Source: an uncultured Rhodospirillaceae bacterium
GTDB lineage: Bacteria; Pseudomonadota; Alphaproteobacteria; UBA2966
NCBI GenBank assembly: GCA_964528595.1
Contig: CAZGTM010000011.1
Coordinates: 3,061-67,060, forward strand
Reading direction: 5' to 3'
Length of the DNA stretch: 64,000 nucleotides
The notes beneath the pieces were generated by a model that saw only the letters and a list, made by a program, of their open reading frames with translations, was not told the DNA's origin and did not search any database. Each line of letters begins with the position of its first letter. The first letter of the stretch is position 1. The translations under genes and the position numbers were made by a program. Shown piece after piece: positions 7,675 to 28,310 of the stretch.

Positions 7675-7819
7675 GGAGGAGAAAATCCGGGAAGGGGGGT
7701 AGACGTCGTCATTATAAGCGCTCCCGGCCCGCCAGCGCCATGCCGGAGTGCGATATCGCACCCACGGAACGGAGAATTTATAACCTTAAGAAAATTGTGG
7801 TTTAATTTATGCATTATGC

Positions 7820-7833
7820 TTGATCTACGTCAA
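7820..7833. promoter_or_regulatory. FNR/DNR-type box TTGAT-ctac-GTCAA
   Basis: One mismatch to TTGAT-N4-ATCAA; TATCCT at 7855-7860 and GGAGGA at 7869-7874 fit a class II (-41.5) promoter for the 7884 ORF. Confidence 0.8.
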
Positions 7834-7883
7834 GTGACCTTTGGGGCGAAACCTTATCCTTCAGTCCCGGAGGATCAGTTGTC

Positions 7884-8066
7884 ATGGAATACGTTTATTT
7901 CACGATTGTGGCCATCGGGGCCTACATAATTTCCGACCGTCTGCTCGACTGGCTGGAGCGCCGGCGCGGTGAGCGGTTCGAATATCGGCAAGTTTACTTC
8001 TTCGCCATCCTGTTGGTTCTGGCCGTCGGCTCGTTCCAAATCATCGGCTTGTTGTCGCAGCAATAG
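7884..8066 (+). CDS. Small two-helix membrane protein (60 aa), unknown function
   Basis: GGAGGA RBS, two hydrophobic segments flanking a basic loop, own FNR-type box. Confidence 0.75.
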   Translation: MEYVYFTIVAIGAYIISDRLLDWLERRRGERFEYRQVYFFAILLVLAVGSFQIIGLLSQQ

Positions 8067-8106
8067 GCGAAGCATCGTGATGACGATCCAAATCCAACAT
8101 TCAAGT

Positions 8107-8121
8107 GCGGCATTCCGTCGC
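8107..8121. promoter_or_regulatory. RegA/RegR-type box GCGGC-attcc-GTCGC
   Basis: Exact match to the GCGGC-N5-GTCGC consensus, within the inverted repeat AAGTGCG...CGCACTT (8103-8125), upstream of the heme-copper operon. Confidence 0.65.
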
Positions 8122-8146
8122 ACTTTACCCCTGGCACGAGACAATC

Positions 8147-8160
8147 TTGATCAACGTCAA
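8147..8160. promoter_or_regulatory. FNR/DNR-type box TTGAT-caac-GTCAA
   Basis: One mismatch to consensus; about 110 nt upstream of the first gene of the heme-copper operon. Confidence 0.82.
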
Positions 8161-8267
8161 GGCTCCGCCCGCGCGGACGGTGTGATGTGTCGAACACTTG
8201 GCTGGGAGCGCTGTTTCTGCGCCCGGCCCGCCATTCATTGGCAAATATTTTTTTTGGGAGGTAGCCC

Positions 8268-8441
8268 ATGACCAATCAAGACGATGCGTCGCAGACCGGC
8301 GGCGACGACGAGCACGTCCCGTTCATGCAGCGTGTGCTCGACAATCATTTTTTGCTGCTCTTCATCGGCGTCGTGATGCCGACGGTTTTCTACATCCTCT
8401 GGGGGATTATGGAAATCGCCACAATCCCGATCGCCAGTTAG
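8268..8441 (+). CDS. 57-aa single-TM protein, probable small subunit of the heme-copper enzyme (absent from the ORF track)
   Basis: GGGAGGT RBS; translates to MTNQDDASQTGGDDEHVPFMQRVLDNHFLLLFIGVVMPTVFYILWGIMEIATIPIAS; its stop overlaps the RBS of subunit II. Confidence 0.85.
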   Translation: MTNQDDASQTGGDDEHVPFMQRVLDNHFLLLFIGVVMPTVFYILWGIMEIATIPIAS

Positions 8442-8453
8442 GAGGCCTGACCA

Positions 8454-8996
8454 ATGGCAATAACCCCCCCTGATGTAAAGCTGTGGTGGAAAGAGCCCAT
8501 CCACAGCATGGAAATCTGGTGGGCGCTGATCGCGCTCATCTGGTCATTGATCATGTTCGTGATGATGCCTTACTGGCATGTCTACGGAGAGCAGAACATC
8601 TCCAACGAAGCCTACCGCATTACGCCCGAGGCGTTCGGCGCCAAGGTCGAAGAGATGACCGAGAAGTACACGGTGCGCGAAGAAGGCGACACCGGCATCC
8701 CGGTCGTCCGCCCGCCGGCCGGCTCGGACGTCTATCTGCTGAGCCGCCTGTGGGAGTGGTGGCCGATCCTCGAACTGGAAAAGGGCAAGAGCTATCGTTT
8801 GCACCTGAGTTCGATGGACTGGCAGCACGGCTTCTCGCTGCAGCCCACCAACCTCAACCTGCAGGTCCATCCGGGCTATGACTTCGTCGTCACCGTCAAG
8901 CCGAACGAAGCCGGCACGTTTTCCATCGTCTGCAACGAGTACTGCGGAGAAGGGCATCACACGATGCTTGGCCGCATGTACGTCACAGACAAGTAA
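8454..8996 (+). CDS. Heme-copper oxidase superfamily subunit II (CuA cupredoxin, one TM)
   Basis: WQHGF...CNEYCGEGHHTM gives a complete CuA ligand set; single N-terminal TM as in B-family subunit II. Confidence 0.92.
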   Translation: MAITPPDVKLWWKEPIHSMEIWWALIALIWSLIMFVMMPYWHVYGEQNISNEAYRITPEAFGAKVEEMTEKYTVREEGDTGIPVVRPPAGSDVYLLSRLWEWWPILELEKGKSYRLHLSSMDWQHGFSLQPTNLNLQVHPGYDFVVTVKPNEAGTFSIVCNEYCGEGHHTMLGRMYVTDK

Positions 8997-9008
8997 GGGG
9001 AGGTCGCA

Positions 9009-10709
9009 ATGTCGATACTTTCGAAATTCCGTATCTGCCCTGAGTCAGGTCTCTACTTTGACGATGCGGCGGAGAAGCTGATCAAATGGAATGCCGTTAC
9101 GGCGGTCGTGTTCCTGCTGGTCGGCGGTCTGTTCGGATTGCTGATGGCGCTGACGCGCTGGCCAGAGGTCCACATTCTGCCGGCAGACCTGTTCTATATG
9201 CTGCTGACCGCGCACGGCCTCGACGCCCTTGTCGTCTGGATCGTGTTCTTCGAGATGGCGGTGCTCTACTTCGCTTCGTCGACGCTGCTGAAGGTCCGCC
9301 TGGCGGCGCCCAATTGGGCCTGGCTGGGCTACATCCTGATGCTGGTCGGCGCCGTTCTCACCAACGTCATGGTGCTGATGGGCGAATCGAGCGTCATGTT
9401 CACGGCCTACCCGCCGATGAAAGCCGATCCGCTGTTCTATCTCGGCATCATCCTGTTTGCCGTCGGCGCGCTGATCGGAACCTTCGTTTTCTTCGGCACC
9501 CTGGTGCTGGCGAAGGATCAGAAGACCTATGAAGGATCCGTCCCGCTGGTGACCTTCGGCGCCCTGACGGCGGCCATTATCGCCGTCTTCACGATCGCGT
9601 CGGGCGCCATCATCTTCGTGCCCACGCTGTTGTGGTCGCTGGGTTACATCGCCCACATCGATCCCTTGATGTACAAGACGGTGTTCTGGGCCTTCGGTCA
9701 CTCGGCGCAGCAGATCAACGTCTCGGCGCACGTGGCGGTTTGGTATGCCATCGCGGCCATCGTCTTCGGCGCCAAGCCGTTGAGCGAAAAAGTCAGCCGC
9801 ATGGCCTTCCTCTTCTACATCATGTTCCTGCAGCTCGCCTCGGCTCACCACTTGCTGGTGGAACCGGGCCTGTCGCCGGAGTGGAAGATCTTCAACACCT
9901 CCTACGCCATGTACCTCGCCGTGCTGGGCAGCATGATCCACGGTCTGACCGTGCCCGGCAGCATCGAGGCGGCGCAACGCAAGAAGGGTTTCACCAACGG
10001 CCTGTTCGAATGGCTGCGGCGTGCACCCTGGAGCAATCCGGTGTTCTCCGGCATGTTCCTGTCATTGGTCTTCTTCGGTTTCCTGGGCGGCATTACCGGC
10101 GTCATCATGGGCACCGAGCAGATCAACATCATCATGCACAACACCCTCTACGTACCGGGTCACTTCCATGCCACGGTCGTCGCGGGTACCACGTTGGCCT
10201 TCATGGCGATCAGTTACTTCCTGGTGCCGTTGTTGTTCCGGCGTGAGTTGTGGTGGCCGGGACTGGCCCGTTGGCAGCCGTACCTCTTCGGCTTCGGCGT
10301 GGCCGGCAACTCGCTCTTCATGATGGGCGCCGGTACGCTCGGCGTGTCTCGCCGGCACTGGGATATCGGTTTCGCCGATGCCTCGCTCGGTTTCGACTAT
10401 CCGGCTTCCGCCTACATGTTCCTGGCGCTTAACGGCCTCAGCGGCATTCTGGCGGCGGTTGGTGGTGCGGCGTTCTGCATCATCATGGTCGGCACCATCC
10501 TGTGGGGCAAACGCAAGGCCGATGCACCCGCACCGGCGGCCGAGCCCGCACCCGCACCCGCGGCGGAACCCGCCCTGCACACCGCAGGCGGCGCCCACTC
10601 GGTGACGGTGCCCGGTACGTTCGTCCTGGCCTTGGTCTTCCTCGGCACTTTCGTTCTCTACTACTTCGTGAACTGGAAGTACCTCGCCGAAGTCTGGCCG
10701 ATCTCGTAA
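9009..10709 (+). CDS. Heme-copper oxidase superfamily subunit I, eNOR-type nitric oxide reductase
   Basis: Six metal-ligand His present (H69; H231; H280,H281; H385,H387); helix VI reads GHSAQQIN, with Gln where O2 reductases have the cross-linked Tyr (HPxVY) and cNOR/qNOR have Glu (HLWVE); lies in a nir island. Confidence 0.85.
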   Translation: MSILSKFRICPESGLYFDDAAEKLIKWNAVTAVVFLLVGGLFGLLMALTRWPEVHILPADLFYMLLTAHGLDALVVWIVFFEMAVLYFASSTLLKVRLAAPNWAWLGYILMLVGAVLTNVMVLMGESSVMFTAYPPMKADPLFYLGIILFAVGALIGTFVFFGTLVLAKDQKTYEGSVPLVTFGALTAAIIAVFTIASGAIIFVPTLLWSLGYIAHIDPLMYKTVFWAFGHSAQQINVSAHVAVWYAIAAIVFGAKPLSEKVSRMAFLFYIMFLQLASAHHLLVEPGLSPEWKIFNTSYAMYLAVLGSMIHGLTVPGSIEAAQRKKGFTNGLFEWLRRAPWSNPVFSGMFLSLVFFGFLGGITGVIMGTEQINIIMHNTLYVPGHFHATVVAGTTLAFMAISYFLVPLLFRRELWWPGLARWQPYLFGFGVAGNSLFMMGAGTLGVSRRHWDIGFADASLGFDYPASAYMFLALNGLSGILAAVGGAAFCIIMVGTILWGKRKADAPAPAAEPAPAPAAEPALHTAGGAHSVTVPGTFVLALVFLGTFVLYYFVNWKYLAEVWPIS

Positions 10710-10719
10710 GGTCCGGATT

Positions 10720-11583
10720 ATGGGTGCCGCCGTCGGTCAACTGCTCTCGGTATTCAAACTGCGCATCGGCGTGGTGATAATGCTCAGCGCGTTGGCCGGA
10801 CTGGCGGTCACCCCCGGACCGCTACCGACTACCTTCCAAATGTTTGTGCTGGCCGCCGCCGTCTTGGTGTCGGCGGCCAGTGCGGGCGCTTTCAATCAAT
10901 ATGTCGAGCGCGACATCGACGGTCTGATGAAGCGCACGGCGGCCCGCCCGTTCGTTACGGGCGAGTACCTCGCCAGCCCCTATTGGCCGGTCGTCATCTG
11001 GGGTCTGATGGCCCTGGCTGTCGGGGCCGCGGCATTGGCCGTCAACGTCTGGGCGGCCCTCTACACATTTCTCGGCGCCTTCACCTATGCCATCGTCTAC
11101 ACGGTTTGGCTGAAGCGCCGCACTTGGCTCAACATCGTATTCGGTGGCCTCGCCGGCAGTTTTGCTGTTCTTGCCGGTGCTGCAGCCGTAGACCCCGGCT
11201 TTGCCGCATTGCCGTTCCTCATGGCGTTTGTCTTGTTCCTGTGGACCCCCCCCCACTTTTGGAGCTTGGCGCTGGCGCTCAAGGACGATTATGCGGCGGC
11301 CGGGGTCCCCATGTTGCCCGTGGTCATCGGCTCCCGCGCCGCCGCCCGCGTCATCCTGGCGAGCACCATTGCGCTGGTCGCCGTCTCGCTCCTGCCCGCC
11401 TTCGCCGGGCTGGGCTGGATCTACTTCAGCGCCGCCGCCGCCGGCGGTCTGGTTTTTATCTATTTCAGCGTCCGCCTGGTTTCGCAACCGACTCGGCGCC
11501 GCGCCATGCTCAATTTTTTTGCCTCTTTGATTCAACTATCCCTGCTGCTGGCAGGGGCCATGCTTGATCGCTGGCTTTTATAG
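10720..11583 (+). CDS. ctaB: Protoheme IX farnesyltransferase (heme o synthase)
   Basis: NQYVERDIDGLMKRTAARP, YTVWLKRRT, FLWTPPHFWSLA, DDYAAAGVPMLP. Confidence 0.93.
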   Translation: MGAAVGQLLSVFKLRIGVVIMLSALAGLAVTPGPLPTTFQMFVLAAAVLVSAASAGAFNQYVERDIDGLMKRTAARPFVTGEYLASPYWPVVIWGLMALAVGAAALAVNVWAALYTFLGAFTYAIVYTVWLKRRTWLNIVFGGLAGSFAVLAGAAAVDPGFAALPFLMAFVLFLWTPPHFWSLALALKDDYAAAGVPMLPVVIGSRAAARVILASTIALVAVSLLPAFAGLGWIYFSAAAAGGLVFIYFSVRLVSQPTRRRAMLNFFASLIQLSLLLAGAMLDRWLL

Positions 11584-11596
11584 GATCGCGACGGTG

Positions 11597-12466
11597 ATGA
11601 TCGAGCTTAAGCGCCAAATCCTGACGATCGGCGCCACGGTCGGCTTGTTGTCCGCCTTGTGCACGGGTGCGGCGACCGCCGCCGAGACCGCGGCGGCCCC
11701 GGCGCCACAGACGGCTGCGGAACGAACTTCGTTCGACGATAAATCGGCGCTGGCGCAAAGTCAGGCGGCGATCGGCCGTAAACTGCGCGATCACCGCCTC
11801 GTCAGGGCCGACGGCAAGGCGTTTCGCATCGCCGATTTTGCCGGCAAGCCTTTGATCATCAGCCTGGTCTATTCCAGTTGCTACCATATCTGTCCGCAAA
11901 TAACCCAGTCGCTGGCGCGGGCCGTCGATGTGGCCAATGACGCTCTGGGCGAGGGTACCTTCCAAGTGGCGACCATCGGCTTCGACACCGAATACGACAA
12001 GCCGTCCGCCATGCGCGCCTTCGCCAAGCAACAGGGCATCTCGTCCGACAACTGGCATTTCCTCTCGGCCGACGCCCCCACGGTCTGGCGCCTCAGCGAC
12101 GATATCGGCTTCAGTTTCACGCCGTCCTCCAAAGGCTTCGACCACCTCACGCAGACGACCATCATCGACCAGCAAGGCCGCGTCTACGCGCAGGTCTACG
12201 GCGAGGACTTCGCCACGCCCCAGCTGGTCGATCCGCTGAAGCACATGGTCTTCAAGGGCGGCCCCTGGACCGGAGTCCAGTCGCTTTTCGACCGCGTCCG
12301 CCTGGTTTGCACCATTTACGATCCGTCGCGGGACGCCTATTACTTCGACTATTCGCTTTTTATCGGCATGGCGATCGGCTTCGTCTGCGTCGCGTTCGTT
12401 GCCGGTTTTATCGTCCGGGAGTATGTCCGGAGCCGCCGGTCCCCGACGGCGCAAGGTTCCAGCTAA
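11597..12466 (+). CDS. SCO1/SenC copper chaperone with C-terminal membrane anchor
   Basis: Signal peptide, CYHICP (CxxxC), FDH His ligand, C-terminal CTIYDP segment followed by a TM. Confidence 0.88.
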   Translation: MIELKRQILTIGATVGLLSALCTGAATAAETAAAPAPQTAAERTSFDDKSALAQSQAAIGRKLRDHRLVRADGKAFRIADFAGKPLIISLVYSSCYHICPQITQSLARAVDVANDALGEGTFQVATIGFDTEYDKPSAMRAFAKQQGISSDNWHFLSADAPTVWRLSDDIGFSFTPSSKGFDHLTQTTIIDQQGRVYAQVYGEDFATPQLVDPLKHMVFKGGPWTGVQSLFDRVRLVCTIYDPSRDAYYFDYSLFIGMAIGFVCVAFVAGFIVREYVRSRRSPTAQGSS

Positions 12467-12478
12467 GGATTTCACGAC

Positions 12479-14029
12479 GTGTTGAAGATGGTGCAGCGCC
12501 CGCTGTTGCGGGGCTTCGAACTTGCCGAAATCGGCTTTGACAAGCTTTTCGGGCGGGAGTGGAACCCGCTGTTTTATCTGGGCGCCTTGGCCTGGTTCAA
12601 CTTCTGGATCGTCGCGGCCAGCGGCATCTACCTCTACGTCGTTTTCGAGACAAGCATTCAGGGCGTTTACGATTCCATCGAGTACCTCACGCATGAGCAG
12701 TGGTACCTCGGCGGCGTCATGCGCAGCCTGCACCGCTATGCCTCCGACGCCCTGATCCTGGTGACCATGATCCATCTGCTGCGCGAGTTCGCCCTCGACC
12801 GCTACCGCGGCGTGCGCTGGTTCACCTGGACGCTGGGCGTGCCGATGCTCTGGCTCATCATAATGTCGGGCATCAACGGGTATTGGCTGGTGTGGGACGA
12901 AATGGCCCAGATGATCGCCGTCGCCACCGCCGAGTTGATCGACTGGTTTCCCATTTTCGGCGAACCCATCGCCCAGAACTTCCTGACCAAGGGCAGCATG
13001 GGCGACCGCTTCTTCAGCCTGCTGATTTTCCTCCACATTGCCATGCCGCTGATCCTGTTGTTCCTGATGTGGCTCCATCTGCAGCGCATGACCAACGCCC
13101 GCATCAATCCGCCGATGGGACTGGGCGTCGGCACGTTCCTCATGTTGCTCGGTCTCAGCCTGGTCTTTCCCGCCGTCAGCCACCAGCAGGCCGACCTCAG
13201 CCAGGTGCCGGCCGTCATCAACCTCGATTGGTACTATCTCTTCATCTATCCGCTGATCGATCTCTGGTCGGCCGGTCCGGTTTGGGGCCTGATCTACGGC
13301 CTCACCTTCCTGCTGATGCTGATGCCCTGGATGCCGCGCGAAAAACCGGGCGCGCCGGCCGTCGTTTCGGACGAGCAGTGCAACGGCTGCGAACGCTGTT
13401 ATGACGATTGCCCCTACAGTGCCATCCAGATGATGCCGCGCGAGGATGACAGCCCCTACGACAAGATCGCCGTGGTCAATGCCAGCTTGTGTGCGGCTTG
13501 TGGCATCTGCGTCGGTTCCTGCCCCACGCATACGCCGCTTCGGCGCGACGACCGCATCGCTATCGGCATCGACCTGCCCGACATCACGTTGCATCAGATG
13601 CGCGGCCAGGCGGTGGCGGCCGTCGCGGGTCTGCCCGACGGCCAGGCCAAGATCCTGCTGATCGGCTGTACCCGCGCCGTCAATGTCGAGCAACTCCGCC
13701 TCGACGGCATCGCCACGCTCGATCTGCCGTGCACCGGCGCCGTACCGCCGGCGCTGCTGGACTTCATGATGCGGCGCGGCGGCGTCGACGGCATCTTCCT
13801 CACCGGCTGCGGCGACGGTGAATGCTTCCACCGCATGGGCGGGCGCTGGGTCGAACAGCGTCTCGACGGCACGCGGGAAACCTATCTGCGCACGCGCTTC
13901 TCGCGCGACCGCATCCGGCTCTCGTGGGCGGCACCGGCCGATGCCGACCGCTTGCTGCAGGAGGTCATCGATTTCCGCGAACGGCTTGAACCGATCCCGG
14001 ACAAGGACCGCGACGAGGTGGCGTCATGA
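12479..14029 (+). CDS. Cytochrome b (bc-type) fused to 2x[4Fe-4S] ferredoxin and MvhD/FlpD-like [2Fe-2S] domains
   Basis: RSLH-x13-H and FLH-x13-H heme ligands, GYWLVWD, LDWY at the PEWY position; CNGCERCYDDCP and CAACGICVGSCP; LLIGC...LPCTG...GVDGIFLTGCGDGECFH. Confidence 0.88.
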   Translation: MLKMVQRPLLRGFELAEIGFDKLFGREWNPLFYLGALAWFNFWIVAASGIYLYVVFETSIQGVYDSIEYLTHEQWYLGGVMRSLHRYASDALILVTMIHLLREFALDRYRGVRWFTWTLGVPMLWLIIMSGINGYWLVWDEMAQMIAVATAELIDWFPIFGEPIAQNFLTKGSMGDRFFSLLIFLHIAMPLILLFLMWLHLQRMTNARINPPMGLGVGTFLMLLGLSLVFPAVSHQQADLSQVPAVINLDWYYLFIYPLIDLWSAGPVWGLIYGLTFLLMLMPWMPREKPGAPAVVSDEQCNGCERCYDDCPYSAIQMMPREDDSPYDKIAVVNASLCAACGICVGSCPTHTPLRRDDRIAIGIDLPDITLHQMRGQAVAAVAGLPDGQAKILLIGCTRAVNVEQLRLDGIATLDLPCTGAVPPALLDFMMRRGGVDGIFLTGCGDGECFHRMGGRWVEQRLDGTRETYLRTRFSRDRIRLSWAAPADADRLLQEVIDFRERLEPIPDKDRDEVAS

Positions 14030-14532
14030 GCAACATCCTCGACATGATCCGGCGTTACGCCGGCCAGGTAATCGCCTACATCGGCTTCGCCGTCCTGTTG
14101 GGATATTTCTCGGCGGCGCCCGACTGGTCGTACTTTCCCGACGACAAGGCCCTGATCAAGCTCAGCCTGACGCATGGCGGCCAACGCAAGGAAGCCTGCC
14201 GCGAACACACCAAGGAAGAACGCGCCAAGCTGCCGCCCACCGCCAAGCCGCCCAAGATCTGTCCCCGTGAACGCCATCCGGTGCGGGTGTCGATCTGGCT
14301 GGACGACAAGCAAATTTACGATGCGCTCGAAACCCCCATGGGGATCACCCGGGACGGCCCGTCCCAGTTCTACAAGCGCTTCCAGGTGGCGCCGGGCAAA
14401 CGTCTGTTGAAGGTCGAAATCGAGGACAGCGGCGGCAACCTTCCGCCGGTCGCCCAGTCGCGGGAAATCGAGCTGACCGCGCGCGGCGTGCTGGTCATCG
14501 AGGCCGACCACGGCAAACTTAAAATTCGATGA
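14026..14532 (+). CDS. Membrane-anchored protein of unknown function (two Cys)
   Basis: ATGA overlap with the cytochrome b fusion; one N-terminal TM, soluble beta-rich remainder; no CxxCH or Rieske motif. Confidence 0.8.
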   Translation: MSNILDMIRRYAGQVIAYIGFAVLLGYFSAAPDWSYFPDDKALIKLSLTHGGQRKEACREHTKEERAKLPPTAKPPKICPRERHPVRVSIWLDDKQIYDALETPMGITRDGPSQFYKRFQVAPGKRLLKVEIEDSGGNLPPVAQSREIELTARGVLVIEADHGKLKIR

Positions 14533-14555
14533 AGGCGTGGCGAATGGTCGCAGAC

Positions 14556-14569: not shown

Positions 14570-14668
14570 GCCGAGGCGACGTTCCTGTGTTAGCCTTTTA
14601 CGGCAACAACGGACACTTGGGGTTTGCGCGGCATGAGCGCCAGCACACAGATCGGGGGATCGGCCGGG

Positions 14669-15364
14669 ATGGAACCCGAGGTAATTTCGCGGGTTGCGAA
14701 AATACCTCTGTTCGCCGGTCTCACCAAGGCGGCGATCGCGGCCCTGTTGGGCAACGCCGTGGTTTCCATCGCACCCGCGGGGACGGTTCTGTTCGCCCAG
14801 GGCGACGTGGCCGACCGCTTCTACGTCCAGCTTGACGGTCAGATCGAACTTTATGTCGTCGCCCCAGACGGGCGCGAAAGCGTGATCGATATCCTGGGCG
14901 CCGGCGAAACCTTCGCCGAGGAGGCCATCTTCGACACCGGCGTGTTTCCGGTCGGCGCCAAGGTGGTGAGCGACGCCCGCATCGTCGCCGTCGAGGCCGA
15001 ACCCTTCCTGGCCCAGCTGACCAGCGAGTTCGATTTGGTGCTGGCGATGATGGGCGGCATGTCACGCCACCTCAGGGTTTTGCTCTATCAGATCAGCGAA
15101 CTCAAATTGAAGTCGACGGCCCAGCGCCTCGGCGGCTTCCTGCTGAGTTTGACCGAGGCCGACGACGGCGAAATCGTCGTCGAGCTGCCCTATGACAAAC
15201 GCCTGCTGGCCAACCGGCTCGGCATGAAGCCCGAAAGCCTCTCCCGCGCCCTGGCCAAGCTCAGGGAAATCGGCGTGCAGGACGTCGAAGGCGTCCTGAC
15301 CATTGCCGATGTCGGCAGCTTGCGCGATTTCTGCCTTGAGGGCGGCCCCGGAGACGCCGCTTGA
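14669..15364 (+). CDS. Crp/Fnr family regulator, DNR/NnrR type
   Basis: LFAQGD, GETFAE, HTH GMKPESLSRAL (E--SR recognition helix); no N-terminal Cys cluster; alternative start 14633. Confidence 0.9.
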   Translation: MEPEVISRVAKIPLFAGLTKAAIAALLGNAVVSIAPAGTVLFAQGDVADRFYVQLDGQIELYVVAPDGRESVIDILGAGETFAEEAIFDTGVFPVGAKVVSDARIVAVEAEPFLAQLTSEFDLVLAMMGGMSRHLRVLLYQISELKLKSTAQRLGGFLLSLTEADDGEIVVELPYDKRLLANRLGMKPESLSRALAKLREIGVQDVEGVLTIADVGSLRDFCLEGGPGDAA

Positions 15365-15472: not shown

Positions 15473-16189
15473 GTGCCGTCCCATCTGCTCGGACCTGAGG
15501 AAATTGCGCGCATCGCGCACATTGGGCCGTTCGCCGACCTGCCGCTGGATGACGTGGCGGGACTGGTGGGCGGCGCGCACGTGCGCGATCACGCCAAGCA
15601 TTCCCTGCTGTTCAGCCAGGGCGACGTCGCCGACCGCTTCTATGTCTGCCTTGATGGCCGGGTGAAGCTGTTCACCGCGACGGAGGAAGGCGACGAGAAC
15701 GTCGTCGGCGTGTTCAGCTCGGGCCAATCCTTCGGCGAGGCCGCCATGTTCGCCTCCGGCCGCTTCCCGGTAAACGCCGAGGTCGTGGAAGACGCCCGTC
15801 TCGTGCAGATCATGGCCGAACCGATGATCCAGCACCTTTCGGACAACAAGGACCTGGCCTTTCGCATGCTCGGCCTGATGGCGCGCCGGCATCGCAGGTT
15901 TCAGAAGGACATCGCCGATTTCAAGTCAAAATCGCCGGGCCAGCGCCTCGGCGGTTTTCTGCTGGCGCTGACCGATGTCGAAAGCGGACCGGCCAATGCC
16001 CAGCTGCCGTTCGACAAGGCCCTGATCGCCGCCCGCATCGGCATCAAACCGGAAAGCCTGTCCCGGGCACTGGCGCGCCTGCGCGAAATCGGCGTCGATT
16101 GCCATGGCCGGGAAGTCGACATCGAGAATGTCGAAACGCTGAGGGCATTTTGCGAAGAAGGCGACATGCAGGCCCGCCACAAGCTATAG
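15473..16189 (+). CDS. Crp/Fnr family regulator, DNR/NnrR type (second paralogue)
   Basis: LFSQGD, GQSFGEAAMF, GIKPESLSRAL; GGAGG RBS with GTG start. Confidence 0.9.
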   Translation: MPSHLLGPEEIARIAHIGPFADLPLDDVAGLVGGAHVRDHAKHSLLFSQGDVADRFYVCLDGRVKLFTATEEGDENVVGVFSSGQSFGEAAMFASGRFPVNAEVVEDARLVQIMAEPMIQHLSDNKDLAFRMLGLMARRHRRFQKDIADFKSKSPGQRLGGFLLALTDVESGPANAQLPFDKALIAARIGIKPESLSRALARLREIGVDCHGREVDIENVETLRAFCEEGDMQARHKL

Positions 16190-16199
16190 AGATTGGGCG

Positions 16200-17360
16200 T
16201 TAGCCGGGCCGGCCGTCGGGCCTTGGGCTCAGCAGCACCGGCGCATACACCACCACGAATATCGAGAACGCGGCGGTCCACAGAAGGCCGGCGACGTAGT
16301 TGGCTTCGACGCTCAGTCCGGGCGCGATGGACGGCACGATGATCCTGATCAGTGCCGCCGCACTGACGGCGGCATAGGTCCAGGGGATGACGGGCCGGAT
16401 GTCGAGCGGCCGTCCGGTGTGACCCAGGGCAACGCGTGTCATCATGCCCAGGGTGAGGGAGCCCACGGCGCCCAGCGTCAGCGCGTGCAGCGCCGTGGCC
16501 ATGGGCAGGAAGTCGGTTAGTGCCGCGATGCCGCGCAAGGCAAAGCCCACAACGACCCAGAGGTAGGCCAGATGCAGGATCCAAAGGATAGGCGTCTTGA
16601 GCGTCGCCATGCCGCCCCAGCCCGACAGCCGGATGCCGTTGGCTAGGGCGGCGGCAAGGCAAAGCAGTCCGATCGCGATGTTCGGCGCCGCGACAAGGTC
16701 GGCGGCGGCGACGGCCAGGACCAGCGTCACGGCGGCCTTGTCGGCGGCGGGCCGCAGCACCGGCTGGGTGCCTAAGGCGTTGCGCGTAAAGGCCGGCGTA
16801 ATTCGTCCGCCCACCATGACCATGATCAGCAGGACCAGGTCGAGGGCGGCGTAAAGGGCGGCGGTGGCGAAACCGTCGATGTAACCGAGCGCCTCCAGGT
16901 GAATGATCAGGTTGGCCACGGCCATGAGCCCGAGCAGGACGGTAAACGCGGTATTGGCGAACCTGCCCGCCTTCAGAAGCGCCGGCAGCAGGACCAGGGC
17001 GACCCCCGGCAGGAACAGCAGGTCGGCCAGGGCGACCAGCGGGCCGGGCAGGGCGTCGGCAAACAGGAGGGCGAGACGCCCGGCCAGCCAGAACGCGGCC
17101 AGCAGGGCAAGCGGCGCGCCCTTGATGTTCGCCGTGCCCGTCCAGTTGGCCACCGCGGTGAGGAGAAAGCCGGCAATCACGGCGGCCGAATAGCCGAAGA
17201 TCAACTCATGGCCGTGCCAGCCCACAGCGCCGAGGTAGCCGGGGGCGCTGATGACGCCCTGCAGCATGACGACCCAGATGGGGATCAGCACGGCGGCGGC
17301 GATGCCGCCGAATAAAAAGAAGACGCGGAAGCCATAGGTGAAGAGAATTCTGTCGAACAT
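16200..17360 (-). CDS. nnrS: NnrS family membrane protein
   Basis: GFRVFFL, WHGHELIFGY, GFLLTAVANWTG, GGRITPAFT, MMTRVALGHTGR, PRPDGRPG C-terminus. Confidence 0.93.
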   Translation of the reverse strand: MFDRILFTYGFRVFFLFGGIAAAVLIPIWVVMLQGVISAPGYLGAVGWHGHELIFGYSAAVIAGFLLTAVANWTGTANIKGAPLALLAAFWLAGRLALLFADALPGPLVALADLLFLPGVALVLLPALLKAGRFANTAFTVLLGLMAVANLIIHLEALGYIDGFATAALYAALDLVLLIMVMVGGRITPAFTRNALGTQPVLRPAADKAAVTLVLAVAAADLVAAPNIAIGLLCLAAALANGIRLSGWGGMATLKTPILWILHLAYLWVVVGFALRGIAALTDFLPMATALHALTLGAVGSLTLGMMTRVALGHTGRPLDIRPVIPWTYAAVSAAALIRIIVPSIAPGLSVEANYVAGLLWTAAFSIFVVVYAPVLLSPRPDGRPG

Positions 17361-17486: not shown

Positions 17487-18481
17487 CTAGGCGTCAGCGC
17501 GGAAGCTGGCCTGACTGCCGTTGGTAAACGTGACAAGGGCGGCCTCGCCGCCGGCCTGGCGCAACATTTGGGAAATGGTGTCGGGCGGCATCATCGTCAA
17601 TGCCGTCGAAAGCGCATCGGCAATCGTTGCGGTTTTCGCGATGACCGAAACCGAGCGGTAGCGAACCGGCGACAGACCGTTGCGCGGATCGATCAGATGG
17701 TGGAACCGGCCCCGCGCATCAAAACGCAGGCCGGCGCCGCTGGACGTCGCGATCGCTCCGCCGGACAAGGGCACAATCGATCCCGTCACGGGCGGGGTGT
17801 TACCGTCCGCCAAGGCGATGCGCCAGGGCTGGCCGGGCGCGCGCGGACCCAGGGCCCGATATTCGCCGAGATTGATCAGCACATGGCGAAGACCGGCGGA
17901 CCGCAAAAGATCGGCGATGCGGTCGGTAATGAAGCCCTGGGCGATGCCGTTGAAGGTGAGCGCCTGTCCCGGTCCCAACCGGACGGCGGCGGGGGCGGCT
18001 GAGATCCGCCGCCAGTCCACCCGGCGCAGTGTCCGGTCGACGGACGCGCGGGACGGGCCCTCGGCCGACGCTTTGGGATTTTCGAAGTGACCGGCATACA
18101 AGCGCCACAAGGGCTGCACGGTGGGATCGAACGCGCCGTTCGACAGGCGGGAGATATTAATGGCATCCCCGAGCAGCCGCAGCATGTCGGCGGAGGGGGC
18201 CTCGAGCTCGCCCGCCGCGTTCAGCCTGCGCAATGCGGAGGCCTCCTGGAAGAGGCTGAATTCCGCCTCCAGTCGCCTGATTTCAGCGACGCAGGCGGTA
18301 ATCACCTCCGCTGCCCGCCGTTCTTCAAGGCCGACGATCTTGATGCTGGCCTGGGTGCCCAGCGCCGCGCCCCGCCATTGCCGCATGAGGCGTCCCGAAG
18401 CGGCTGTGGCGCCGGCCGGCAGCAGGGCGGCGCCCGCGGCGGCGGCGGTCAGCGAAATGGCGCGGCGGCGGCTGATGGGGG

Positions 18482-18485
<4 letters not shown>
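17487..18485 (-). CDS. nirX: FAD:protein FMN transferase (ApbE/NosX/NirX)
   Basis: Tat-like signal MTPISRRRAI, ALGT, GAFDPTVQPLW, NGIAQG, ATSS, HLIDP, ADALSTAL; ATGA overlap with the upstream NirI/NosR gene. Confidence 0.88.
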
Positions 18486-22694
<4,209 letters not shown>

Positions 22695-22704
22695 CGGGTC
22701 TCCG

Positions 22705-22730
22705 CCGGGCGGGGTTTCGGCTCCGCCCGG
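22705..22730 (+). terminator. GC-rich hairpin after nirS (terminator or mRNA stabiliser)
   Basis: CCGGGCGGGG-tttcgg-CTCCGCCCGG just after the stop; weak U-tract. Confidence 0.55.
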
Positions 22731-22777
22731 TCGGGCCTTTGGTCAATGTGAAATGTTTTATCCCGTGGGGGGATGAG

Positions 22778-23599
22778 ATGAAAAAAACAGCACCCGGCAG
22801 GTCATCAGATGCGGCGAACGTCTTTCTCGTGGGCGCCGGTCCGGGCGACCCCGAGCTTCTGACGGTCAAAGCCCTGAGGCTCATACAATCGGCGGAGGTC
22901 GTGGTTTACGACCGCCTCGTCGGTCCCGAAATTCTCGATCTTATTCCGGTCGGCGCCAGCCGCATCAATGCGGGCAAGGCCGCCGGCGCGCATCACCTGC
23001 CGCAGGATGAGATCAATCAGACCCTGGTCCGCCTGGGACGTAGCGGCCGCCGCACCGTCCGCCTCAAGGGCGGCGATCCCTTCGTCTTCGGGCGCGGTTC
23101 CGAGGAAGCCCTGGAGCTCGTCGCCGCCGGCATCCCGTTTGAGGTCGTGCCCGGTATCAGCGCCGCCACCGGCGCCAGCGCTTATGCCGGCATTCCGCTC
23201 ACCCATCGTGGGTTGGCGCGCAGCGTCCGTTTTGTCACCGGCCACTGCCGCGAAGACAAACCGCTGGATCTCAACTGGCAGAGCCTGGCTGATGCCGACA
23301 CCACGCTGGTCGTCTATATGGGCCTGGCCAACCTCAAGGAAATTTCGCGCCATCTTATCGAGCACGGCCTGGCCGGGTCGACCCCGGCCGCAGCCATCGA
23401 AAACGGCACGACGAGCGGCCAGCGCCGGCTGGTCTCGACCTTGGCCGAGCTGCCGGGCGACGTGACGGCGCAGGAATTCCGTGCGCCTTGCCTGCTGGTC
23501 ATCGGCCGGGTGGTCGAGCTTGCGGGCGCTCTCGATTGGTTCGCCGACGCCGGGACAGGCGCGGCGGAACTGGACAATGTCTTGGTCGCGGCTCAATAG
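22778..23599 (+). CDS. nirE: Uroporphyrinogen-III C-methyltransferase (heme d1 synthesis)
   Basis: LVGAGPGDPELLT, RLKGGDPFVFGRG, VPGISA, GIPLTHRG; position after nirS. Confidence 0.93.
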   Translation: MKKTAPGRSSDAANVFLVGAGPGDPELLTVKALRLIQSAEVVVYDRLVGPEILDLIPVGASRINAGKAAGAHHLPQDEINQTLVRLGRSGRRTVRLKGGDPFVFGRGSEEALELVAAGIPFEVVPGISAATGASAYAGIPLTHRGLARSVRFVTGHCREDKPLDLNWQSLADADTTLVVYMGLANLKEISRHLIEHGLAGSTPAAAIENGTTSGQRRLVSTLAELPGDVTAQEFRAPCLLVIGRVVELAGALDWFADAGTGAAELDNVLVAAQ

Positions 23600-23909
23600 C
23601 GCCCTCCTCGCATTGCTGATACTCGGGGGGGTATCTCAAGCGGCAGCGGCCGAAATGACTCCGCCGCGCCAGGCGGAGCTCGGCGTCCTGCTGGAACAGG
23701 ATTGCGGCTCGTGCCATGGTCTGACGCGCCGCGGCGGACTGGGGTCTCCCCTGATGCCCGAAGCCCTCGAACATTTTACGGACGACGCCTTGATTGAAAT
23801 AATTCTGGACGGCGTGCCCGGTACGCCGATGCCGCCGTGGCGGCCGTTCCTCACGCACGAGGAGGTGGCCTGGCTGGTCGCCAGATTACGCAAAGGACTG
23901 AAACAATGA
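23577..23909 (+). CDS. nirC: Cytochrome c55X
   Basis: Signal peptide, QDCGSCHG, GGLGSPL, GVPGTPMPPW. Confidence 0.92.
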   Translation: MSWSRLNSALLALLILGGVSQAAAAEMTPPRQAELGVLLEQDCGSCHGLTRRGGLGSPLMPEALEHFTDDALIEIILDGVPGTPMPPWRPFLTHEEVAWLVARLRKGLKQ

Positions 23910-25075
23910 CCGGTCCGCGCCTCGCCTTCGTTTCGCTGTGCGCCCTGCTGGCCGCCGCCTGCACGGAAGTGCGCGGCACCGGCGACCTCGGCATCGTCAT
24001 CGAACGCGCCGACGGCAACGTCCAGATCGTCGACAATTCGACGCGCACGAGCCTGGCCAGCGTTTCCGGTCTGGGCGATCTTTCCCATGCCTCGGCGGTT
24101 TATTCGCGCGATGCCCGCTATGCCTTCATCTTCGGCCGTGACGGCGGATTGACCAAGGTGGACCTGTTGGAACGCCGCATCACGGGCCGCACCATCCAGG
24201 CCGGAAACTCCATCGGCGGCGCCATCTCCCAGGACGGCAAGCTGGTCGCCGTGTCCAACTACAAGCCGGGCGGCGTACGTATTTTCGACACGGAAACGCT
24301 CGAGATGGTGGCCGACATCCCGGCCATCGGCGCCGACGGCGAACAATCGAAGACCGTCGGCCTGGTCGACGCACCGGGCCAGCGCTTCGTCTTCGGGCTT
24401 TACGACGCCGGTGAGATCTGGGTGGTCGACATGACCGACCCGGCCCAGCCGGCGATCACCAAGATGACCGACATCGGCAAGCTGCCTTACGACGGCCTGA
24501 TCACGCCGGACGGGCGTTGGTACGTCGCCGGCCTGTTCGGCGAGGACGGTCTGGCCATGGTCGATCTTTGGAATGTCGAAGCCGGCGCCAAGCGCATCCT
24601 TTCGGGTTACGGCCGGGGCGGCAAGAAGATGCCGGTCTACAAGATGCCGCACCTCGAAGGCTGGGCGATGGCCGACGGCCACGCCTTCTTCCCCGCCATC
24701 GGCCACCACGAAGTGTTGATCGCCGAAGCCGGTTCCTGGAACGAGGTCGGGCGCATCGCCGTCCACGGCCAGCCGGTGTTCGTCATGGCGCGGCCCGACG
24801 GGCGGCAGATCTGGGTCAACTTCGCCTTCCCCGACAACGACACCATTCAGGTCATCGACGTGCCGAGCCGCCGCATCGTTAAGACCTTGAAGCCCGGCCC
24901 CGCCGTGCTGCATATGGAATTCACGCCGCGCGGCGAGGAAGTCTGGCTCTCGGTGCGCGACGCCGGCAAGGTCGTGGTTTACGACACCAGGACGTTCGAG
25001 CAGCGCGCCAGCCTCAAGGCGGCAAAGCCCAGCGGTATATTCTTCACCAGCCGCGCCCACCGGATCGGCTTGTAG
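23906..25075 (+). CDS. nirF: Heme d1 biosynthesis lipoprotein NirF
   Basis: Lipobox LAAAC, RGTGDLG, GLGDLSHAS, YKMPHLEGW, PSGIFFTSRAHRIGL. Confidence 0.94.
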   Translation: MTGPRLAFVSLCALLAAACTEVRGTGDLGIVIERADGNVQIVDNSTRTSLASVSGLGDLSHASAVYSRDARYAFIFGRDGGLTKVDLLERRITGRTIQAGNSIGGAISQDGKLVAVSNYKPGGVRIFDTETLEMVADIPAIGADGEQSKTVGLVDAPGQRFVFGLYDAGEIWVVDMTDPAQPAITKMTDIGKLPYDGLITPDGRWYVAGLFGEDGLAMVDLWNVEAGAKRILSGYGRGGKKMPVYKMPHLEGWAMADGHAFFPAIGHHEVLIAEAGSWNEVGRIAVHGQPVFVMARPDGRQIWVNFAFPDNDTIQVIDVPSRRIVKTLKPGPAVLHMEFTPRGEEVWLSVRDAGKVVVYDTRTFEQRASLKAAKPSGIFFTSRAHRIGL

Positions 25076-25085
25076 GGGACGCGGC

Positions 25086-26078
25086 ATGGCGCGGGATACC
25101 GCTCACCAGCTCCTGAACGATTATCAACGGGATTTTCCGTTGGTGGCGCAACCCTATGCCGTCATCGCCCACGAGCTTGGTTTGACCGAGGCCGAGGTCA
25201 TGTCGGGCCTCGGGGAGCTCAAGGAAGCGGGGTCGGTCAGCCGCATCGGCGCCACCTTGCGGCCCGGCGCCATCGGTGCTGCGACGCTTGCCGCATTGAA
25301 CGCGCCGGCGGATCAGCTCGAAGCCGTGGCCGGACTGGTCAGCGCCTATGACGAGGTCAACCACAACTACGAACGGGAGCACGATTATAATCTCTGGTTC
25401 GTCGTGACCGCCGCCAGCAAGGCCGGCGTCGCCCGCGTCCTCGCCGATATCGAGGGGCGGACCGGACTGGCGGTGCTCGACCTGCCTATGGTGCGGGACT
25501 ATTTCATCGATCTCGGCTTCGACATCGACGGCCGCGACGAAGATATCGCGCCCTGCATGCCGGCGGCCCAGCCGCCGCCGCCGGATGCCCGCGATCGCGA
25601 TCTCCTGGGTGTGCTCGAGGCCGGTTTGCCGCTGGTGCCCGAGCCCTACGAGGAAATCGGCGCGGCCTGCGGGATGACCGGCGAGGCGGTCATTTTCCGC
25701 CTGCGCGCCCTACAGCAGGCCTGCACCATCCGGCGCTTCGGCGTCATCGTGCGCCACCACGAACTGGGTTTTCAGGCCAACGCCATGACGGTCTGGCAGG
25801 TCGCCGAGGACCAGGTGGACAAGGTCGGCGCGCGCCTGGGCGAACTACCATACGTGCGGCTCTGCTATCAGCGCCGGCCCGACCCCAACTGGCCTTACAA
25901 TCTTTACGCCATGGTGCACGGCCGCGACCGGGACATCGTCAAGTCCCAGGTGGCCGAAGCCGCAAAGCACTGCGGCCTCGAGGACGTGCCCCAGGACGTC
26001 CTGTTCAGCACGCGGCGCTTCAAGCAGCGCGGCGCGCACTACCTCGGCCGCACCGGCCGGGGGGAGGCGGCGGAATGA
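25086..26078 (+). CDS. nirD: Siroheme decarboxylase, fused NirD-NirL
   Basis: Two Lrp/AsnC-like modules (QRDFPL...VNHNYERE...NLWFV; GLPLVPEPY...HHELGFQANAM...WPYNLYAMVHG...FKQRGA). Confidence 0.9.
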   Translation: MARDTAHQLLNDYQRDFPLVAQPYAVIAHELGLTEAEVMSGLGELKEAGSVSRIGATLRPGAIGAATLAALNAPADQLEAVAGLVSAYDEVNHNYEREHDYNLWFVVTAASKAGVARVLADIEGRTGLAVLDLPMVRDYFIDLGFDIDGRDEDIAPCMPAAQPPPPDARDRDLLGVLEAGLPLVPEPYEEIGAACGMTGEAVIFRLRALQQACTIRRFGVIVRHHELGFQANAMTVWQVAEDQVDKVGARLGELPYVRLCYQRRPDPNWPYNLYAMVHGRDRDIVKSQVAEAAKHCGLEDVPQDVLFSTRRFKQRGAHYLGRTGRGEAAE

Positions 26079-26554
26079 CGACGCCCGACGACACGACATT
26101 GCTGGCCAGCCTGGACGACACCGACCGGGCGATCATCAACGCCCTGCAGCGCGGCTTTCCCATCGCGGAAAACCCGTACGCCGAGGCCGCCAGCCAGTTT
26201 GGCCTGAGCGAAGACCAGCTGATCGAGCGTCTGCAACGGCTGCTCGATGACGGGGTTTTGAGCCGCTTCGGTCCGATGTATCACGCCGAGCGCCTCGGCG
26301 GCGAACTGACGCTGGCCGCCATGAAGGTGCCGCAGGCGCGCTTCGATGCGGTGGCCGAGCAGGTCAACGCCCACGACGAGGTGGCCCACAACTACGCCCG
26401 GGACGACGATTTCAACATGTGGTTCGTCGTCGCCACCGACACGCCCGGCCGCATTGCCGAGGTGATCGGCGAAATCGAGGCCGAAACCGGCCTCGCCGTC
26501 CACGACATGCCGAAGACCGACGAGTATTTCGTCGGCCTGCACTTCGAGGTTTAG
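26075..26554 (+). CDS. nirG: Siroheme decarboxylase subunit NirG
   Basis: QRGFPI, SRFGPMY, VAHNYAR, NMWFV; gene order. Confidence 0.9.
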   Translation: MTTPDDTTLLASLDDTDRAIINALQRGFPIAENPYAEAASQFGLSEDQLIERLQRLLDDGVLSRFGPMYHAERLGGELTLAAMKVPQARFDAVAEQVNAHDEVAHNYARDDDFNMWFVVATDTPGRIAEVIGEIEAETGLAVHDMPKTDEYFVGLHFEV

Positions 26555-26557
26555 GCC

Positions 26558-27088
26558 ATGAGCAGCGCCGGCGAATTCGACACCGAAACAGGCCTGGATG
26601 CCGTCGACCGCCTGATCGTGGCGGCGACGCAGCAGGGCCTGCCGTTGACGCCCCGGCCCTACCACGACATCGCCGAGCAACTGGGCCTGACGGGACCGGA
26701 GGTCATGGCGCGCCTGGAGGCGATGCTTGAGGCCGGCATCATCCGCCGCATCGCCGCCGTGCCCAATCATTACAAGCTGGGTTACCGCGGCAACGGCATG
26801 AGCGTCTGGAACGTCTCGGACGAGGACGCCGATGCGGCGGGGCGGGAAATCGGCGCGCTCGATTTCGTCAGCCACTGTTACCGCCGGCCGCGCCATTTGC
26901 CCGACTGGCCCTACAACCTGTTCGCCATGGTGCACGGCCGAGACCGCGCGGCGGTCCACGATCAAGTGGCCCAGATCGCGGACCTGCTGGGTGCCCGCGA
27001 CCGGAGCCACAAGGTGCTGTTCAGCACGGCAATTTTAAAGAAGACCGGCTTTCGTATGGGCCCGCCCAAATCCGGTGATCGGAGGTAG
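26558..27088 (+). CDS. nirH: Siroheme decarboxylase subunit NirH
   Basis: VPNHYKLG, NGMSVW, VSHCYRRPR, WPYNLFAMVHG, LKKTG. Confidence 0.92.
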   Translation: MSSAGEFDTETGLDAVDRLIVAATQQGLPLTPRPYHDIAEQLGLTGPEVMARLEAMLEAGIIRRIAAVPNHYKLGYRGNGMSVWNVSDEDADAAGREIGALDFVSHCYRRPRHLPDWPYNLFAMVHGRDRAAVHDQVAQIADLLGARDRSHKVLFSTAILKKTGFRMGPPKSGDRR

Positions 27089-27091
27089 CCC

Positions 27092-28309: not shown

Positions 28310-28310
28310 C

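Follow-up and report, generated by a model that had tools for sequence, protein, structure and literature searches.

Whether an enzyme with the appearance of a cytochrome c oxidase reduces oxygen or nitric oxide (NO) is the question raised by a gene pair of an uncultured Rhodospirillaceae bacterium. The pair lies at positions 8454-10709 of a stretch of 64,000 nt (contig CAZGTM010000011.1 of assembly GCA_964528595.1, positions 3,061 to 67,060), which is referred to as the window in the following. In an earlier note, made from the letters of the window alone, it had been proposed that the pair probably encodes an eNOR-type NO reductase standing in for norCB. Based on the analysis presented here, the gene pair very probably belongs to the eNOR family of NO reductases, which has already been described.

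The subunit I of eNOR is defined by a conserved Gln at the site of the cross-linking Tyr (Schwartz et al., PMC8756737), in agreement with the earlier note, which had assigned Gln-bearing, B-family-derived NO reductases to this family. The same source lists Halobacteria and Proteobacteria as carriers and states that numerous homologs from Proteobacteria bear the annotation cytochrome c oxidase, as had been anticipated for automatic annotation. The further expectation that norB surveys miss such genes is partly out of date, since at least one marine survey uses hidden Markov models for eNOR (PMC10359470). For the purified enzyme of R. marinus a reduction of NO and not of O2 is described (Murali et al. 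2024, PMC11214002), together with CuA-type subunits, a K channel similar to that of ba3 oxidase and a conserved equivalent of Ser309 as features of the family.

The open reading frames (ORFs) of subunit II (8454-8996) and subunit I (9009-10709) are separated by 12 nt on the + strand. Subunit I matched the Pfam family COX1 with an E-value of 6.2e-67, and it stayed well under all NCBIfam oxidase cut-offs (77.5 vs 670.75 bits for CtaD, 22.3 vs 583 bits for ccoN). The closest solved structure was subunit I of the T. thermophilus ba3 oxidase (1ehk_A, E 5.3e-45), followed by A-family oxidases at E 7e-5 and worse, and no NO reductase (NOR) or cbb3 chain was among the solved matches at E <= 0.001. In the alignment with ba3, the residues H69, H231, H280, H281, H385 and H387 pair with the ligands of the haems and of CuB. 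Hence, the three His of the non-haem metal (H231, H280, H281) and the haem ligands (H69, H385, H387) are kept, and all six are invariant in an alignment of 50 rows.

The deciding difference is found in helix VI, where the sequence G-H-P-I-V-Y of ba3 pairs with G-H-S-A-Q-Q. By this means Q235 comes to lie opposite the cross-linking Tyr237 of ba3, and Gln235 is invariant in the 50 rows. The His-Tyr motif of the B family (H-P-x-V-Y) is absent from helix VI of subunit I, which reads H231-S-A-Q-Q235 instead, and the H-x3-E(-x3-E) motif of cNOR and qNOR was not found in the protein. Both observations of the earlier note, the missing Tyr and the missing Glu motif, were thus borne out. The motif H-x-x-Q-Q was determined in all of the 120 top database relatives and in 118 of 119 relatives that belong to a second clade. 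It was likewise seen in 80 of 80 named genomic loci (the best 80 of 587 relatives, with subunit I identities of 66-98%). Since nearly all relatives examined carry it, the motif cannot be attributed to chance. A path resembling the K channel is also recognisable: S309, T315 and Y248 of ba3 pair with S308, T314 and Y246, while T312 pairs with H311 and Y244 with V242, the ba3 residues other than S309 having channel roles as well. S308, H311 and Y246 are invariant in the 50 rows.

The position of subunit I among its relatives was determined with a tree calculated by IQ-TREE from 36 rows and 564 columns, comprising 14 Gln-type rows, four rows with H-x-x-Q-Y, three rows with an odd, His-poor motif and 12 B-family rows with HPxVY; the aa3, ccoN and C51 proteins of the same genome were added (C51 being a further haem-copper enzyme treated below). 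All 14 Gln rows, one of them from the haloarchaeon Natrarchaeobius, form one clade at 100/100, and the 12 HPxVY rows form a separate clade at 95/92. The protein clusters looked up for the relatives are named Natrarchaeobius, Hodarchaeales, Thermoproteota and other metagenome-assembled genomes (MAGs). The H-x-x-Q-Y rows, which keep the Tyr, are a sister grade of the Gln clade. In these proteins (P0134, P0135, P0139, P0151), found in MAGs of Hodarchaeales and Thermoproteota, a Gln is already present at His+3, and the grade may represent an intermediate linking B-type oxidases with eNOR. Of the phylogenetic check proposed in the earlier note, this tree covers the comparison with the B family, from which the Gln clade stands apart.

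Subunit II could be aligned to subunit II of ba3 by phmmer (E 2e-13), with H125, C160, C164, H168 and M171 falling on the CuA ligands. These five residues and E20 are invariant in 46 rows of subunit II. The Pfam search of subunit II gave no match, and the NCBIfam model CoxB scored 40.3 bits, under its cut-off of 147.7. Together with the six His ligands, whose invariance among the relatives was described above, the CuA subunit II postulated in the earlier note could be confirmed by the ba3 alignment.

Upstream of subunit II, a short frame termed orf57 is preceded by GGGAGG ahead of its ATG. The related loci were compared with the proteins of the window by tblastn, and only loci with enough flanking DNA were counted; a homolog of orf57 was found in 75 of 75 loci that extend far enough upstream. 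In 46 rows its N-terminus is variable and its helix strongly conserved. A complex prediction with three chains, based on alignments of 50 rows for subunit I and of 46 rows each for subunit II and orf57, resulted in a score of 0.94, compared to 0.24 for the best of three controls. In the calibration, which is based on single-chain pairs and on other alignments, 58 of 80 solved complexes attained this mark, as did two of 110 mismatched pairs. Three prediction runs agreed in at least 98% of the contacts, and the pLDDT of the partner was at least 79. Contacts were predicted to residues 162-300 of subunit I and to residues 10-13 and 51-61 of subunit II. The model supports a docking of orf57 on the eNOR subunits, and orf57 is regarded as a candidate analogue of subunit IIa of ba3. 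The ba3 oxidase has a solved three-subunit structure including the small subunit IIa, and the score may therefore reflect the likeness to this structure.

Whether such an enzyme has a place in the metabolism of its host can be judged from the remaining genome. The host is a marine alphaproteobacterium, whose assembly comprises 140 contigs and is 94.5% complete. The sequencing runs found to contain this DNA are marine and seawater metagenomes (DNA), eight of them possibly its source, with no RNA run among those listed. Four genes for haem-copper subunit I were found in the Pfam search, i.e. aa3, the cbb3 gene ccoN, eNOR and a divergent gene on contig C51, and the same four resulted from phmmer with three queries against 17,505 six-frame ORFs. 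The A-type aa3 scored 543 bits and ccoN scored 765 bits to TIGR00780. No norB-like gene was found by Pfam and phmmer, neither in the window, as had been noted before, nor in the whole assembly, and the NorQ marker CbbQ_C had no match in the assembly. NosZ (TIGR04244, 1113 bits) and NapA (1551 bits) were detected, and for NarG there was no hit above the cut-off in the assembly. Since NapA, NirS and NosZ are present and neither norB nor norQ was found, eNOR plausibly fills the step of NO reduction between NirS and NosZ. Accordingly, the proposed role as a stand-in for norCB is supported, with the restriction that the C51 enzyme may share the step. A single ctaA gene is located on contig C29, and the idea that the operon belongs to an organism lacking the capacity for haem A synthesis was rejected on this basis.

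Among 200 sampled Alphaproteobacteria, ten of the 12 other eNOR-bearing genomes were examined for other NO reductases. Eight of the ten contained no cNOR- or qNOR-like gene. The remaining two carry NOR-like genes related to the C family: in one genome the gene encodes 834 aa with H-x3-E-x3-E, and in the other a cytochrome c gene precedes that of a 459-aa protein without the motif. In the 834-aa, qNOR-like protein (L109, 1354-3855, - strand, genome G068) the motif reads H-M-W-V-E-V-T-F-E, and its sequence contains no HH pair. This recalls the NO dismutase candidates, for which a loss of metal-ligand His is reported. Another haem-copper lineage, the odd, His-poor type (P0190, P0197, P0200; loci L107 of G037 and L133 of G104), was observed in a Dehalococcoidia MAG and in two of the ten eNOR-bearing alphaproteobacterial genomes. 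Its helix VI reads F-H-x-x-H-Y, and it shows Y-H for the HH pair and Y-x-H for the H-x-H of helix X, so that several canonical metal ligands are replaced.

The retention of the fold and of all metal ligands of ba3 could also point to an O2 reductase of an unusual B-type lineage, which would operate without the His-Tyr cofactor or with a Tyr from elsewhere. The nearest sister grade still carries the Tyr, and subunit I contains three further Tyr (Y222, Y270, Y299) that are invariant in the 50 rows, though they lie opposite Arg, Leu and Val in the ba3 alignment and are therefore not common to ba3. Nonetheless, both known Tyr positions are occupied by other residues. In helix VI the +4 position is Q235. 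C-family oxidases bear their Tyr on helix VII, six residues ahead of the HH pair, and the ccoN of the same genome has it there (L-Y-I-W-A-G-P-H-H), whereas a Tyr is absent at this position of subunit I, which shows L274 (L274-Q-L-A-S-A-H-H). For this comparison the HH pairs of subunit I and ccoN were brought into register manually, the MAFFT alignment being shifted by one column; the columns of MAFFT itself give Q275 as partner of the ccoN Tyr, likewise not a Tyr. Judged from helix geometry, Y270, ten residues ahead of HH, would be buried more deeply than the Tyr of the C family, by about one turn, and is read as a possible channel residue. The lack of O2 reduction by the R. marinus enzyme, an operon with an anaerobic-type box and nir neighbours, and the statement in PMC11214002 that no migrated Tyr was found in the eNOR family argue in the same direction. 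The earlier note had named a placement within the B or C family, with a Tyr from another helix, as an outcome that would overturn its reading. In the approximately unbiased (AU) test, forcing the window protein and its nearest homolog into the B-family rows cost 113.85 lnL and was rejected (p-AU 3.1e-7), the group having been composed after the tree was seen, although the hypothesis itself is the one of the earlier note. Altogether, an enzyme reducing O2 appears most improbable.

A different view would leave the reduction of NO by the gene pair untouched and assign the main respiratory function to the C51 enzyme, the second haem-copper enzyme of the genome without the Tyr, with eNOR working under microoxic conditions only or as a detoxifier. 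C51 shows H-N-L-M-E in helix VI, with a Glu at the Tyr position, and G-H-T-M in helix X, with a Met for the second His; its subunit II contains a CuA motif. This fits the description of the rare nNOR family, for which active-site residues similar to those of cNOR and a low-spin haem with His/Met ligation are given (PMC11214002), C51 being compared with nNOR by description only. Microoxic conditions were also required for the expression of eNOR in R. marinus (PMC11214002). It is, however, the eNOR operon and not the C51 pair that adjoins nirS, NnrS and the regulators and that has their type of box. Next to C51 lie no denitrification genes but those of a Cu P-type ATPase, a DsbD_2 protein and unrelated metabolic functions, with a hemerythrin-like ORF about 4 kb away, and a C51 homolog was found in only one of the ten eNOR-bearing genomes examined. 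A leading role of C51 is therefore considered unlikely. Still less can be said for another reaction, directed at a different nitrogen oxide or depending on a cytochrome b/Fe-S partner. Only about 43% identity is shared with the haloarchaeal protein of the Gln clade, the characterised R. marinus enzyme could be compared by description only, and a fusion protein without an assigned role accompanies the gene pair in every locus of the clade. On the other hand, Q234, Q235 and all ligands are invariant in both bacterial clades and in the haloarchaeal row. In addition, the eNOR transcripts of Ferrigenium straubiae are described as the most abundant of its three haem-copper enzymes under denitrifying conditions, with proteins of the eNOR operon detected in the proteome (10.64898/2026.01.22.701106). 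Such a deviating reaction is thus very improbable.

Besides the order of events in the AU test, several points count against an assignment as the NO reductase of a complete denitrification pathway. The name eNOR is based on the marker residue, on a clade with a haloarchaeal row and on the taxa listed in the literature, and the rows of the tree include none of the named reference eNORs (R. marinus, Magnetospirillum, Natronomonas), the characterised ones being compared by description only. Since the C51 enzyme fits nNOR, eNOR need not be the sole NO reductase, and C51 could be the main one. The NOR-like genes in two of the ten genomes indicate that eNOR does not always replace such enzymes, and only about a third of the related loci have nir genes as neighbours. 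Furthermore, the haem a cofactor of eNOR is reported to require the O2-dependent CtaA (PMC11214002), so that the enzyme may work only microoxically. Weighing all of this, a NO reductase of the eNOR family remains by far the best supported reading of the gene pair.

The features of the locus and of the C51 pair are compiled in Table 1.

Table 1. Features around the putative eNOR genes and the C51 gene pair (positions refer to the window unless a locus is given; aa, amino acids)
Feature	Position	Strand	Remark
FNR/DNR-type box TTGATCTACGTCAA	7820..7833		upstream of orf60
orf60, small predicted membrane protein	7884..8066	+	one hydrophobic segment
FNR/DNR-type box TTGATCAACGTCAA	8147..8160		~108 nt upstream of orf57
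orf57, conserved single-helix protein	8268..8441	+	57 aa; candidate small third subunit
Putative eNOR subunit II	8454..8996	+	180 aa; one membrane helix and CuA cupredoxin domain
Putative eNOR subunit I, catalytic, haem-copper type	9009..10709	+	566 aa; Gln235 at position of cross-link Tyr
Haem O synthase (CtaB/CyoE paralogue)	10720..11583	+	TIGR01473, 263.7 bits, cut-off 210.3
Sco1/SenC-type copper chaperone	11564..12466	+	PF02630, E 1.1e-10; C-terminal membrane anchor, C-x3-C-P
Fusion of dihaem cytochrome b (bc1/b6 type), two [4Fe-4S] motifs and MvhD/FlpD-like domain	12479..14029	+	Pfam
orf168, N-terminal membrane helix and beta-sandwich domain	14026..14532	+	two invariant Cys
Crp/Fnr regulator	14624..15364	+	without N-terminal Cys cluster
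Second Crp/Fnr regulator	15473..16189	+	without N-terminal Cys cluster
NnrS	16200..17360	-	PF05940, E 3.7e-106
ApbE-family gene and NosR/NirI-like Fer4_5 membrane protein	17487..20764	-	PF02424, E 4.8e-61; PF12801, E 2.8e-16
cd1 nitrite reductase cluster nirS, nirE, nirF, nirDL, nirG, nirH, nirJ, nirN	20754..29867	+	
FNR/DNR-type box TTGATCTGCGTCAA	20800..20813		nirS promoter
C51 subunit I	L091 9592-11127	-	second Tyr-less haem-copper enzyme
C51 subunit II	L091 11154-11720	-	C-x3-C-x3-H-x2-M motif

From orf57 through orf168 the genes are separated by gaps of at most 12 nt or overlap, which suggests that orf57, the subunits II and I, haem O synthase, Sco, the fusion and orf168 are one operon. 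A scan of positions 7700-14700 for promoters and terminators gave promoter-like sites at the level of shuffled sequences and no terminator-like site that would mark an operon end. Boxes of the form TTGAT-N4-ATCAA with at most one mismatch occur five times in the window compared to 0.80 expected, and none of 100 shuffles reached five. Three of them, at 7820, 8147 and 20800, have the form TTGATC-N4-GTCAA. In 55 of 73 related loci an FNR-type box lies at most 350 nt upstream of the orf57 homolog, whereas the box density over all 80 loci would let 0.035 per 360 nt be expected. The box at 8147 is therefore likely to be the control site of the operon. As the box at 20800 lies inside the longest ORF of nirS, the true start of nirS is probably located further downstream. 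The two Crp/Fnr proteins fit the DNR/NnrR type or the FixK type alike.

The neighbourhood of NnrS, two Crp/Fnr proteins and a nirS cluster, on which the earlier note had relied, was found as described there. The nir cluster was assigned from matches to Cytochrom_D1 (E 3.1e-150), TP_methylase, a NirDL-like HTH, Radical_SAM and others. Of 42 related loci with full flanks of 8 kb on both sides, 14 contain nirS within 8 kb and 15 contain some nir gene; nnrS was found in seven and a Crp/Fnr gene in 12. A homolog of orf60 was present in 40 of 75 loci with enough upstream DNA; it was absent from 80 loci of the second clade, and orf60 matched no Pfam family. The ApbE-family and NosR/NirI-like ORFs are divergent from nirS, and their longest ORFs overlap by about 600 nt, which means that at least one start is over-called. 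They presumably correspond to NirX and NirI of Paracoccus, where nirI-nirX are likewise divergent from nirS.

The sources of the 80 loci are Rhodospirillaceae, Woeseiaceae, Hyphomicrobiaceae, Sulfuricaulis and numerous proteobacterial MAGs without classification; an uncultured Rhodospirillaceae MAG is the closest, with 98% identity. Sco, the fusion and orf168 were each present in all 66 loci with at least 4 kb of downstream DNA, and ctaB in 46 of these 66. A ctaA gene within 8 kb was found in only seven of the 80 loci. A second eNOR clade, about 55% identical and named only as Deltaproteobacteria or 'bacterium' MAGs, was counted in metagenome loci with at least 5 kb downstream of subunit I; here 28 of 28 loci contain the fusion, 22 contain Sco, 20 orf57, 19 orf168 and 14 ctaB. 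In 56 of the 80 loci of the first clade a hemerythrin-domain gene follows orf168 (133 aa, PF01814 E 4e-10, e.g. L048 12565-12966, + strand), which is absent at this place in the window and in its two closest relatives, and also from all 28 loci of the second clade.

The connection is also visible in the sample of 200 Alphaproteobacteria. The same 12 genomes contained subunit I of eNOR (E <= 1e-60) and the fusion (E <= 1e-30), and neither was found in the other 188. In all 12 both lie on the same contig, with the match of the fusion starting about 1-2 kb past the end of the subunit I match. As the fusion was encountered in the sampled genomes only together with eNOR, it may be considered a dedicated partner of eNOR in electron transfer or maturation.

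In comparison with the PDB, the fusion matched cytochrome b6 (E 1.2e-16) and MvhD (E 1.9e-6). It contains the His pairs of the bc1/b6 type (H85/H99 and H186/H200), two C-x2-C-x2-C-x3-C motifs and four more invariant Cys in the MvhD-like domain, and all cofactor ligands are invariant in 63 rows. A conserved D250-W-x-Y253 lies opposite P-V-W-Y of cytochrome b, the alignment being weak at this point. A hydropathy scan gave four hydrophobic segments ahead of the Fe-S part. By analogy with cytochrome b, six membrane helices are assumed, in which case the Fe-S domains would be cytoplasmic. No longer homologs of the fusion (at least 904 aa) were found at E <= 1e-20, which is weak evidence. For orf168, no Pfam or NCBIfam family was matched and the Atlas clusters are all named 'hypothetical protein'. 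The AlphaFold2 model of orf168 had a mean pLDDT of 90.9, and its two Cys are invariant in an alignment of 22 rows; Foldseek against the PDB gave no match at E <= 0.001, the best being generic beta-sandwiches with a query-normalised TM-score of at most 0.39.

One conceivable function of the fusion, which we regard as rather doubtful, is that of a component in a Rieske-less, quinol-oxidising assembly with bacterial eNOR as the terminal part, instead of eNOR acting as a free-standing cytochrome c:NO oxidoreductase. In such an assembly the fusion would oxidise quinol at the periplasmic face, with four His as haem ligands and D-W-x-Y at the place of the PEWY motif in the quinol-oxidation site of cytochrome b. 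One electron would pass toward CuA and NO, and the other one via the b haems to the cytoplasmic Fe-S clusters and further to a low-potential acceptor, the very exergonic reduction of NO driving the uphill electron flow. Alternatively, the fusion could be a maturation factor specific for eNOR, which for example supplies reductant for haem a synthesis at low O2. In the literature, the supplements of Murali et al. aside, only the preprint on Ferrigenium straubiae (10.64898/2026.01.22.701106) was found to describe such genes beside eNOR.

For the gene pair itself, the eNOR reading leads to the following mechanism. A B-family-derived haem-copper enzyme, in which the cross-linked Tyr was lost and replaced by Gln, would convert 2 NO to N2O, in accordance with its family, and by the same reasoning the binuclear centre would contain iron rather than copper. 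Electrons would be passed from a periplasmic donor to CuA in subunit II and via the low-spin haem to the binuclear centre in subunit I. Protons would probably be taken from the cytoplasm to the binuclear centre through the K-channel-like path, and as a consequence of this cytoplasmic uptake the NO step would be electrogenic. We infer both the NO-reducing activity and the energy conservation from the family. The haem a-type cofactors would be provided by the haem O synthase of the operon and the chromosomal, O2-dependent CtaA, while CuA may be loaded by Sco. The FNR/DNR-type box ahead of the operon may regulate it, and the nirS promoter contains the same kind of box. With NapA as nitrate reductase, eNOR would supply the NO step between NirS and NosZ.

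Much of this is already in print, namely the family and its marker residue, the annotation as cox, the pairing with nirS in norB-less genomes and the possible energy conservation. New are the fixed accessory module across two eNOR clades and the second, nNOR-like candidate for a NO reductase in the genome. The genome search proposed in the earlier note gave no norB and a clear NosZ. With eNOR, an organism that looks like an incomplete denitrifier (nap, nirS and nosZ, no nor) becomes a probably complete one. Its NO step may also conserve energy, which is relevant for estimating how much N2O is produced and consumed in the sea; in the literature, both the completeness and the energy argument have been made for the whole family. 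The fixed partners offer a testable lead on how eNOR is supplied with electrons and how haem a is synthesised when oxygen is scarce.

Among the closest known systems is the enzyme of R. marinus DSM 4252. It is likewise described as a two-subunit, CuA-type and B-family-derived enzyme without the Tyr and with a K-channel-like path, and its host likewise contains NapA, NirS and NosZ and no cNOR or qNOR (PMC11214002). Another trait of eNOR is that a modified haem a, haem As, occupies both of its haem sites; in the genome, genes that would support this are seen in the haem O synthase of the operon and the single ctaA. The operon of Ferrigenium straubiae comprises eNOR II, eNOR I, haem o synthase, sco1, a scaffold protein and cytochrome b/[Fe-S], and the window shows the same order. 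In the preprint the genes for cytochrome b/[Fe-S] are termed 'rather unusual'; here the fusion was present in 66 of 66 loci of the first clade and in 28 of 28 of the second. Ferrigenium possesses in addition a paralogue that carries FAD and NADH domains, of which the window contains none. The 'cytochrome a1-like' haemoprotein of Magnetospirillum magnetotacticum (Tamegai 1993) is an alphaproteobacterial eNOR according to PMC11214002. In M. magneticum AMB-1 the eNOR neighbourhood contains ctaA and ctaB, whereas the operon of the window has no ctaA, which is located on contig C29.

The ba3 oxidase of T. thermophilus (1EHK) shares with the window proteins the six His, the CuA ligands and the equivalents of S309, T315 and Y248. 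It differs in Tyr237, Y244 and T312, in place of which Gln235, V242 and H311 are found, and in its position in a separate clade. The cbb3 oxidases are distinguished by the helix VII Tyr, where the window protein has L274, and by their cytochrome c subunits. Finally, cNOR and qNOR catalyse the same reaction at the same place in the pathway as proposed for eNOR, but they possess the Glu motif, a cytochrome c or the N-terminal extension of qNOR and C-family kin, in contrast to the CuA cupredoxin and the B-family kin of the enzyme described here. The arrangement of the genes is comparable, as norCB stands beside nirS in Paracoccus in the way that eNOR stands beside nirS in the window.

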